Source: Naegleria gruberi
Lineage: Eukaryota
NCBI GenBank assembly: GCA_000004985.1
Contig: GG739346.1
Length of the DNA stretch: 1,689 bases
Reading direction: 5' to 3' (one strand)
A model generated the notes under the pieces. It was not told the origin of the DNA, ran no database searches, and saw only the letters and a list, made by a program, of their open reading frames with translations. Below are positions 266 through 801 of this stretch, in pieces (positions within the stretch are counted from its first letter, which is position 1; every line of letters begins with the position of its first letter). Both the position numbers and the translations under genes were made by a program.

Positions 266-801
266 CATGTTTCAACCAGTTCTTTATCAAATAAGTTTAT
301 ACAAATCCAACTTCCCAAAAGGAGGGAGTGTTTTCAATTAATAGATCTTTTAAAAGATATTCATTCAAAAGGATTTTGTCACAGAGATATTAGACCTGAT
401 AATGTTATGCGGACTGATGATGGTAAATTGATATTAATTGATTGGGGTTTTGCATGTGCAATTAATGAGACAACTTTTTTTGCTGGTATTATTTCTTTTT
501 GTGCTGATGATTATTAAGGTTGCGTTTTGGATCAAAATACTTTCATAAGACCGTACAAGAAAGAGTATGATTGTGAATCAATGCTAAAAATTTTTTGTTT
601 TTGGTTTGATGAAGATAAAATAGAAATATTATCAGTGAACAGATTAAAGCTAGAAATTTTTGGACTAATTTTAATAAGTTGAATTTCCAATCAATTTTAA
701 AACAAATTCATACCAAAAATTCTGATCCTTATGAAGTTCTTAAATCATTTTTACTAAAAACAATATTGATTAAAATAAGTTGGAATGTTGCTGGATAATA
801 G
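266..801 (+). CDS. Casein-kinase-1-superfamily-like protein kinase catalytic domain. The gene is disrupted or recoded: frame 2 runs 266-679 with an in-frame TAA at 515-517, and frame 1 runs 619-795 ending TAA-TAG at 796-801. It is either a pseudogene, a gene needing TAA-as-sense translation, or a gene with small introns.
   Basis: In frame 2 the motifs IHSKGFC-HRD-IRPDN (HRD at 380-388) and LILI-DWG-FA (DWG at 440-448) lie 20 residues apart, as for catalytic loop and DFG in ePKs. IHSKGFCHRDIRPDNVM closely resembles CK1 IHSKNFIHRDVKPDNFLM. The same frame continues after the TAA into an alphaF-like DCESMLKIFCFW (CK1 DDLESLGYVLMYF), 43 residues after DWG versus about 46 in CK1. Frame 1 then gives KQIHTKNSDPYEVLKSF (CK1 ...EKKMSTPIEVLCKGYP). 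Frame 2 has no ATG between 266 and 407 and no TGA in 212-679. Confidence 0.55.
329..514 (+). CDS. Best-supported core of the kinase domain: alphaE through the catalytic loop, DWG and activation segment, as a standard-code ORF segment ending at TAA 515-517.
   Basis: Direct translation gives CFQLIDLLKDIHSKGFCHRDIRPDNVMRTDDGKLILIDWGFACAINETTFFAGIISFCADDY. The HRDxxxxN and D[FW]G spacing and context are canonical for the eukaryotic protein kinase fold. Confidence 0.7.

Follow-up and report, generated by a model that had tools for sequence, protein, structure and literature searches.

A probable decayed, 5'-truncated copy of a heterolobosean nuclease-kinase gene from a family with conserved HRDxRPxN and DWG motifs

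The DNA analysed here, a stretch of 1,689 nt with 30% GC that is called the window throughout, encodes a protein kinase segment with arginine at the position of the catalytic-loop lysine and DWG at the position of DFG, and the question that it raises is whether these two substitutions are errors, marks of a dead kinase or traits of a kinase family. The preliminary description had read them as belonging either to a divergent or inactive pseudokinase paralogue or to a member of an expanded, lineage-specific CK1/TTBK-like family. Both motifs were located where they had been reported:

380-403, plus strand, frame +2: catalytic loop HRDIRPDN, codons CAC AGA GAT ATT AGA CCT GAT AAT, with the Arg codon AGA at 392-394.
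440-448, plus strand, frame +2: DWG replacing DFG, codons GAT TGG GGT.

Alignments with solved kinases place the Arg in the column of the canonical catalytic-loop Lys and the Trp in that of the DFG Phe. Frame +2 of the window scores 37.9 bits against the Pfam Pkinase profile (PF00069), above the gathering cut-off of 31.7, and the match is confined to profile positions 106-152, from helix alphaE to DFG. With the gene-family HMM, the same motif-bearing frame scores 163.7 bits (E 2.4e-51), indicating that the motifs are no chance match.

A word-indexed homologue search with a 129-aa fragment returned no match. An exhaustive HMMER search was made with the exact 74-aa stretch encoded by window positions 293-514, and recovered P0001, from the ENA metagenome contig L001 (reads ERR1078381), at 99% identity, and P0002 of Willaertia magna at 60%. 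More relatives that match as a single stretch came from Willaertia, Naegleria fowleri, metagenomes and N. lovaniensis (P0160, locus tag C9374_007118). Among the best 150 matches, 11 align as one stretch over essentially the whole query; all of these carry DW[GSN] and almost all H[RK]DxRPxN, and the remainder of the 150 are generic multi-kinase proteins with K and DFG. Sequencing error, which had been named as a possible source of R and W, is excluded by the independent contig L001, which is identical to the window across both motifs, and by the family at large, in which 21 of 21 aligned sequences have the W and 13 of 21 the R. The proposal of a lineage-specific expanded family proved essentially right, as both residues are maintained in heterolobosean amoebae and in relatives from metagenomes.

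Two of the Willaertia magna proteins are rearranged. P0002 is an internally deleted copy without the PD...ExK segment; it shares its contig with the intact P0151 (ABK040_000492), at a distance of eight locus tags. P0006 consists of two tandem kinase units, one with K and DWN and the other with R and DWS. The Willaertia locus L002 has 21% GC, compared with 29-30% for the window and L001, so that the window does not stem from W. magna itself but probably from some other protist of heterolobosean type.

An alignment of 21 family sequences shows the beta3 Lys, the alphaC Glu, the His and Asp of HRD, the Pro and Asn of the catalytic loop, and the Asp and Trp of DWG to be present in every sequence (21/21 for each). 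The catalytic-loop position is occupied by Arg in 13 sequences and by Lys in 8, and the split follows subfamily lines, the eight Lys-bearing sequences forming a distinct subfamily (HRDVKPDN...NDWGSS). Since the Trp is universal and the sister subfamily keeps the Lys, the Trp is the older of the two changes, and the replacement of Lys by Arg arose inside the family and was then conserved. Judged from the alignment, R and W are no marks of a dead kinase but fixed traits of a family in which the rest of the active site looks intact.

It could be argued that the whole family consists of pseudokinases, in which the K to R and F to W changes abolish phosphotransfer, so that the domain would serve the attached nuclease only as a scaffold or as a sensor of nucleotides. 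Almost all Ser/Thr kinases have the catalytic-loop Lys, and the region after DWG is highly divergent and lacks APE, both of which speak for such a loss. Pseudokinases, however, usually lose several catalytic residues, and because the beta3 Lys, the alphaC Glu, the HRD Asp, the loop Asn and the DWG Asp are all kept in 21 of 21 sequences, the pseudokinase reading of the family appears unlikely; moreover, the sister subfamily with the same W retains the Lys. Kinase-dead CRN8, a Phytophthora infestans protein compared with the family below, still triggers cell death, so that the kinase may be dispensable for toxic output (PMC3426532, PMC5289972), but CRN8 itself autophosphorylates (PMC3426532), and both CK2, which has DWG, and the Src-family kinases, which have Arg two residues past the catalytic Asp, are active enzymes (PMC9608649, PMC4342544).

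The Arg is also met outside this family. A metagenome scan for H[RK]D[IV]RP[DEP]N returned over 600 stretches, of which 238 were relatives of kinases, and among the 80 loci retained the motif was accompanied by DFG in 36, DLG in 17 and DWG in 10. These results indicate that Arg has been fixed repeatedly at the catalytic-loop position in kinase-like lineages. Arg replaces the catalytic-loop Lys, together with DLG, in an unrelated and highly conserved kinase-like family, HRDIRP[DE]NI[IM]ISE[HQ]GHCT[IL]IDLGSAAL...APEYF, which was seen at L031, L035, L046-L048, L052-L058, L061, L065-L067 and L073, on contigs of about 45% GC and up to 549 kb.

The traits of the family have to be kept apart from the state of the copy in the window. 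Comparison with L001 and with the family HMM resolved the window into the following parts:

1-281, no strand assigned: sequence that lies upstream of the kinase gene and is not related to it; the similarity to the near-identical copy L001 starts abruptly at 282 (blastn).
282-647, plus strand, frame +2: kinase fragment that begins at helix alphaE, takes in the catalytic loop, DWG and the activation segment, and extends to alphaF (family HMM positions 296-405).
515-517, plus strand: in-frame TAA nonsense codon; TTA (Leu) in L001, and Leu in Willaertia and N. lovaniensis too.
647-648, plus strand: site of a 13-nt deletion relative to L001, seen as a blastn gap, at which frame +2 passes into frame +1.
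649-798, plus strand, frame +1: kinase C-terminal tail (ARNFWTNF...DPYEVLKSFL...), with its natural stop TAA at 796-798 (family HMM positions 419-455).

Window positions 282-739 and L001 positions 881-1351 are identical at 455 of 458 aligned bases (blastn). At the protein level, the translated fragment agrees with P0001 in 81 of 83 residues and with Willaertia P0002 in 51%, and the C-terminus of P0002 (residues 302-334) matches the tail of the window in frame +1 (tblastn). The two copies differ as follows:

Window 489: T, against C in L001; Ile instead of Thr.
Window 516: A, against T in L001; TAA stop instead of TTA Leu.
Window 533: C, against T in L001; CAA Gln in the window, TAA stop in L001.
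Window 647/648: 13 nt missing, against AGAAAGCAGAGGG in L001; frame +2 to frame +1.

No remnant of the nuclease domain or of the kinase N-lobe was found: family HMM positions 1-295, the part of the profile that corresponds to the N-terminal domain and the whole N-lobe, have no match in any of the six frames of the window. The catalytic apparatus of this copy is incomplete, the G-loop, the beta3 Lys and the alphaC Glu being missing with the N-lobe, and it therefore cannot bind ATP. Only the last third of the protein is retained, with a nonsense codon and a frameshift in it, and the 5' truncation at 282, the TAA at 515-517 and the frameshifting 13-nt deletion at 647/648 together mark a pseudogene. 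The suspicion of an inactive kinase was thus correct for this copy, by way of the truncation, the TAA and the deletion, and mistaken in taking R and W as its marks, given that the other catalytic residues are invariant in the family.

The near-intact twin on L001 has a single in-frame TAA of its own at L001 1132-1134, where the window has CAA (Gln), and the two near-identical copies thus each bear a different nonsense codon. As far as the two sequences can tell, this is the picture of recent paralogues decaying independently. We put the probability at about 0.8 that the gene copy in the window is decayed and truncated at its 5' end, and that it belongs to a nuclease-kinase family of heterolobosean amoebae (Willaertia, Naegleria) and uncultured protists, in which HRDxRPxN and DWG are fixed features of the kinase.

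As the window and L001 were both treated as short metagenome contigs, assembly might have produced part of the damage or the break at 282. Taken to its full extent, this would mean that the gene is intact in the organism and that the truncation, the TAA and the 13-nt deletion were all introduced in short-read metagenome assembly, for instance by a chimeric join of paralogues or by consensus errors. The exact runs shared by the window and L001, of about 207 nt, exceed typical assembler k-mers (related contigs bear k127/k141 prefixes), which makes a graph branch at a repeat plausible; two further contigs, L005 and L006, break independently at a repeat edge, so that such boundaries do affect these assemblies, and L001 has the one odd TAA described above. 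All three independent defects would nevertheless have to be errors, and the 281 nt upstream give no N-lobe signal in any frame. The finished Willaertia genome, moreover, also has decayed, internally deleted copies, such as P0002 without its PD...ExK segment, and pseudogenes are common in the analogous CRN8 family (PMC3426532). That the damage is artefactual throughout is quite unlikely, and genuine decay is the reading followed here.

A nonsense codon in an otherwise recognisable frame also brings the genetic code into question. Frame +2 is broken by TAA/TAG under the standard code and open from 293 to 682 under table 6, so that the window might be taken for an intact gene in a ciliate-type code (TAA/TAG = Gln), possibly the kinase of the Oxytricha TBE 57-kD ORF, or for one with a Euplotes-type programmed +1 frameshift. 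The GC content of 30%, the AAA-TAA-G at 289-295 and the fact that TBE elements encode a zinc-finger/kinase ORF with frequent frameshifts would suit these ideas. The nearest relatives are, however, heterolobosean proteins in the standard code, and the homologues have Leu, not Gln, at the TAA. The 388-codon frame of L001 contains 12 CAA, no TAG and one TAA, and intact relatives use TAA as the terminal stop only; the probability that a frame of 315 codons stays open by chance at this composition is about 4e-13. The change of frame is accounted for by the 13-nt deletion, and neither TBE-like telomeric inverted repeats nor the TBE gene order were found in the window. The ciliate code and the TBE kinase are refuted by the standard-code homologues, the Leu and the deletion, and a Euplotes-style shift at AAA-TAA-G was rejected on the grounds that frame +1 upstream shows no homology with family members. 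An intact gene in a deviant code is scarcely credible.

Beside the kinase fragment, two reading frames were recorded in the window:

754-1100, minus strand: further reading frame (REDTPEPVQYIPTLEDLNNFFICEDLEFYFDVKHGLIQGLDDDFRGSVISK...).
1174-1452, plus strand: 92-aa Lys/Glu-rich ORF with an ATG start.

The GC skew flips with the orientation of these two frames, which suggests real or former coding sequence. No homologue was found for the three flanking reading frames of the window when concatenated, nor for the best reading frame of positions 1-281, and tblastx of the flanks (1-281 and 799-1689) against eight related loci gave no match. An exact look-up of the 92-aa ORF, an exact DNA scan of viral contigs and blastn against phages likewise did not recover the contig. 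Searches for tRNAs and with Rfam detected no RNA genes in the flanks, searches for tandem and dispersed repeats in the window yielded nothing relevant, and PADLOC reported generic kinase-core matches only (PD-T4-6, mad6, MkoA). Within the activation-segment coding region, Tandem Repeats Finder listed an imperfect 21-nt duplication, CTTTTTGTGCTGATGATTATTT, at 474-515 (2 copies, 85% match); it ends at the TAA codon, and the stretch is the same in L001 except for the point differences at 489 and 516.

The surroundings of related genes were also inspected. On contig L004, positions 1921-3846 of the plus strand hold an ORF of 641 aa whose motifs (YLDDIG; FWTDAS...ILEARA...IYTDS) are those of reverse transcriptase and RNase H; it starts 78 nt downstream of the nuclease-kinase gene P0060, on the same strand. 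On L007, a eukaryote-like contig, a 563-aa TnpB/Fanzor-like protein (HTH_OrfB_IS605 and Cas12f1-like_TNB) is encoded at 3128-4819 on the minus strand, convergent with the family member P0152.

Such neighbours open the possibility that the nuclease-kinase gene is ORF1 of a retroelement and that the window copy is a 5'-truncated retrotransposed insertion, and near-identical decayed copies and 5' truncation are indeed typical of retroposition. Against this, the element with the reverse transcriptase is probably a repeat of its own, since two independent contigs, L005 and L006, stop precisely at L004:1915, just ahead of the reverse transcriptase ORF. The gene has ordinary neighbours and no reverse transcriptase close by in N. 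lovaniensis, in Willaertia and on the N. fowleri-like contig L008. In the window itself, neither homology to reverse transcriptases nor a poly(A) following the stop at 796-798 is present, and the mobile neighbour genes differ between loci. The contig ends at L004:1915 and the ordinary neighbours in the genomes weaken the idea drawn from L004, and a retroelement origin is very unlikely.

Intact members of the family begin with a coiled coil at the N-terminus, which is followed by a nuclease domain and then by a protein kinase that is of eukaryotic type but divergent. The nuclease domain, known in Pfam as DUF6826, has the restriction-endonuclease PD-(D/E)xK fold. In P0160 of N. lovaniensis, the nuclease motif at about residues 233-237 reads GVVKD, with Val replacing the acidic residue of (E/D)xK. 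Going by these residues, the nuclease site of P0160 may be inactive though its kinase site is intact, and given VVK against ExK the coupling of nuclease and kinase may be absent from some members. The AlphaFold model of P0160 (pLDDT 78.7) has a disordered N-terminus followed by a single long helix at 36-108, a coiled coil, and no beta-grasp; a Foldseek search with this model returned generic protein kinase.

Searched against the PDB, the family profile gave CK2alpha for all of its best 60 chains (E about 1e-22). The alignment spans the region from the G-loop (lGrGatSlVye against LGRGKYSEVFEA; GRGxxSxV) to DWG and ends there, and P0042 searched alone had the same outcome, with CK2alpha matches ending just after DWG. 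Beyond this point the family is very divergent and without APE; a profile of the post-DWG region had no PDB match at E <= 10, and the CK1-like look of this region is unsupported for that reason. The closest sequence relatives are therefore not of the CK1 group (CK1/TTBK/VRK): all 60 best chains are CK2alpha, and DWG is the native CK2 motif. The CK1/TTBK-like assignment made earlier may have modest support in structure and has none in sequence; the most fitting description of the family is that of a divergent kinase, as yet unclassified, which falls between CK1 and CMGC.

The window itself matters very little, being a dead gene fragment and a remnant of gene-family turnover; decay of this kind is ordinary, and the window adds little that is new, the family a modest amount. 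The family offers a natural experiment in which the catalytic-loop Lys of a Ser/Thr-type kinase was replaceable by Arg and the Arg was then conserved across genera, and the Lys-keeping sister subfamily serves as a control for the replacement. Pfam DUF6826 gains a restriction-endonuclease fold assignment. The joining of nuclease and kinase that is known from oomycete Crinkler effectors now also appears in free-living amoebae of the heterolobosean lineage, among them relatives of the pathogen Naegleria fowleri, in which it could be a conflict or self-defence module.

How the two substitutions might work in intact members, which from their sequences are probably active kinases, is suggested by two well-known groups of enzymes. 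The loop Arg of Src-type kinases occupies the same column as the Lys of Ser/Thr kinases. It lies two residues past the catalytic Asp in HRDLRAAN, the catalytic loop of Src-type tyrosine kinases (PMC4342544), as it does in the window family; the family Arg is followed by P-x-N, a Ser/Thr-type context, whereas that of Src is followed by A-A-N. No other tyrosine-kinase signature was found in the family, and tyrosine kinases were not favoured in the fold or sequence searches. By analogy with Src-type kinases, the Arg would supply the ATP gamma-phosphate with the positive charge that normally comes from Lys.

CK2alpha shares with the family DWG (LIDWGLAEF in CK2) and sequence similarity in the G-loop and alphaC, but homology over the full-length kinase, with a CMGC-type C-lobe, was not found, and the loop of the window has Arg where CK2alpha has Lys. 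CK2alpha is constitutively active, and its DWG is stabilised by an extra hydrogen bond that disfavours the DFG-out state (PMC9608649). If the Trp acts as in CK2, it would hold the DFG segment in the active conformation and make for an enzyme that needs no activation-loop switching.

For the protein as a whole, the nearest likeness is to the Crinkler (CR) effectors. About one-sixth of Crinkler/CR effector C-termini have a restriction-endonuclease domain joined to a kinase, and in these modules toxicity is attributed to the nuclease, which the kinase would regulate (PMC5289972, summarising Zhang et al. 2016); CR proteins have also been reported from free-living eukaryotes. CRN8 of Phytophthora infestans is an active RD kinase that autophosphorylates and has 10 paralogues and 38 pseudogenes (PMC3426532). 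As in the D2 type of CRN8, the RD kinase of the family is of eukaryotic type and is immediately preceded by a domain with the restriction-endonuclease fold, and as in CRN8 there are multiple copies with many decayed ones among them: here P0002 has an internal deletion, P0006 joins two units in tandem, and both L001 and the window have defects. The header differs from that of Crinklers, in that the P0160 model has neither the LxLFLAK motif nor a ubiquitin-like domain, only the long coiled-coil helix, and Pfam found no Crinkler domain in six near-full-length members and P0001. The resemblance to CRN8 is therefore one in the way of working, with no demonstrated membership. By this analogy, the kinase may work with, or regulate, the nuclease attached to it, as has been proposed for the CRN8-type modules of Crinklers. 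We tentatively suggest, as a possibility that we hold well short of likely, that the HRDxRPxN and DWG kinases are an uncharacterised, constitutively active Ser/Thr-type class that uses Arg for the catalytic-loop Lys and is hard-wired to a restriction-endonuclease-fold nuclease, forming a CRN8-like conflict or toxin module that undergoes rapid birth and death in free-living amoebae, sometimes beside mobile elements (the reverse transcriptase element, Fanzor/TnpB), and of which the window would be a recent casualty.
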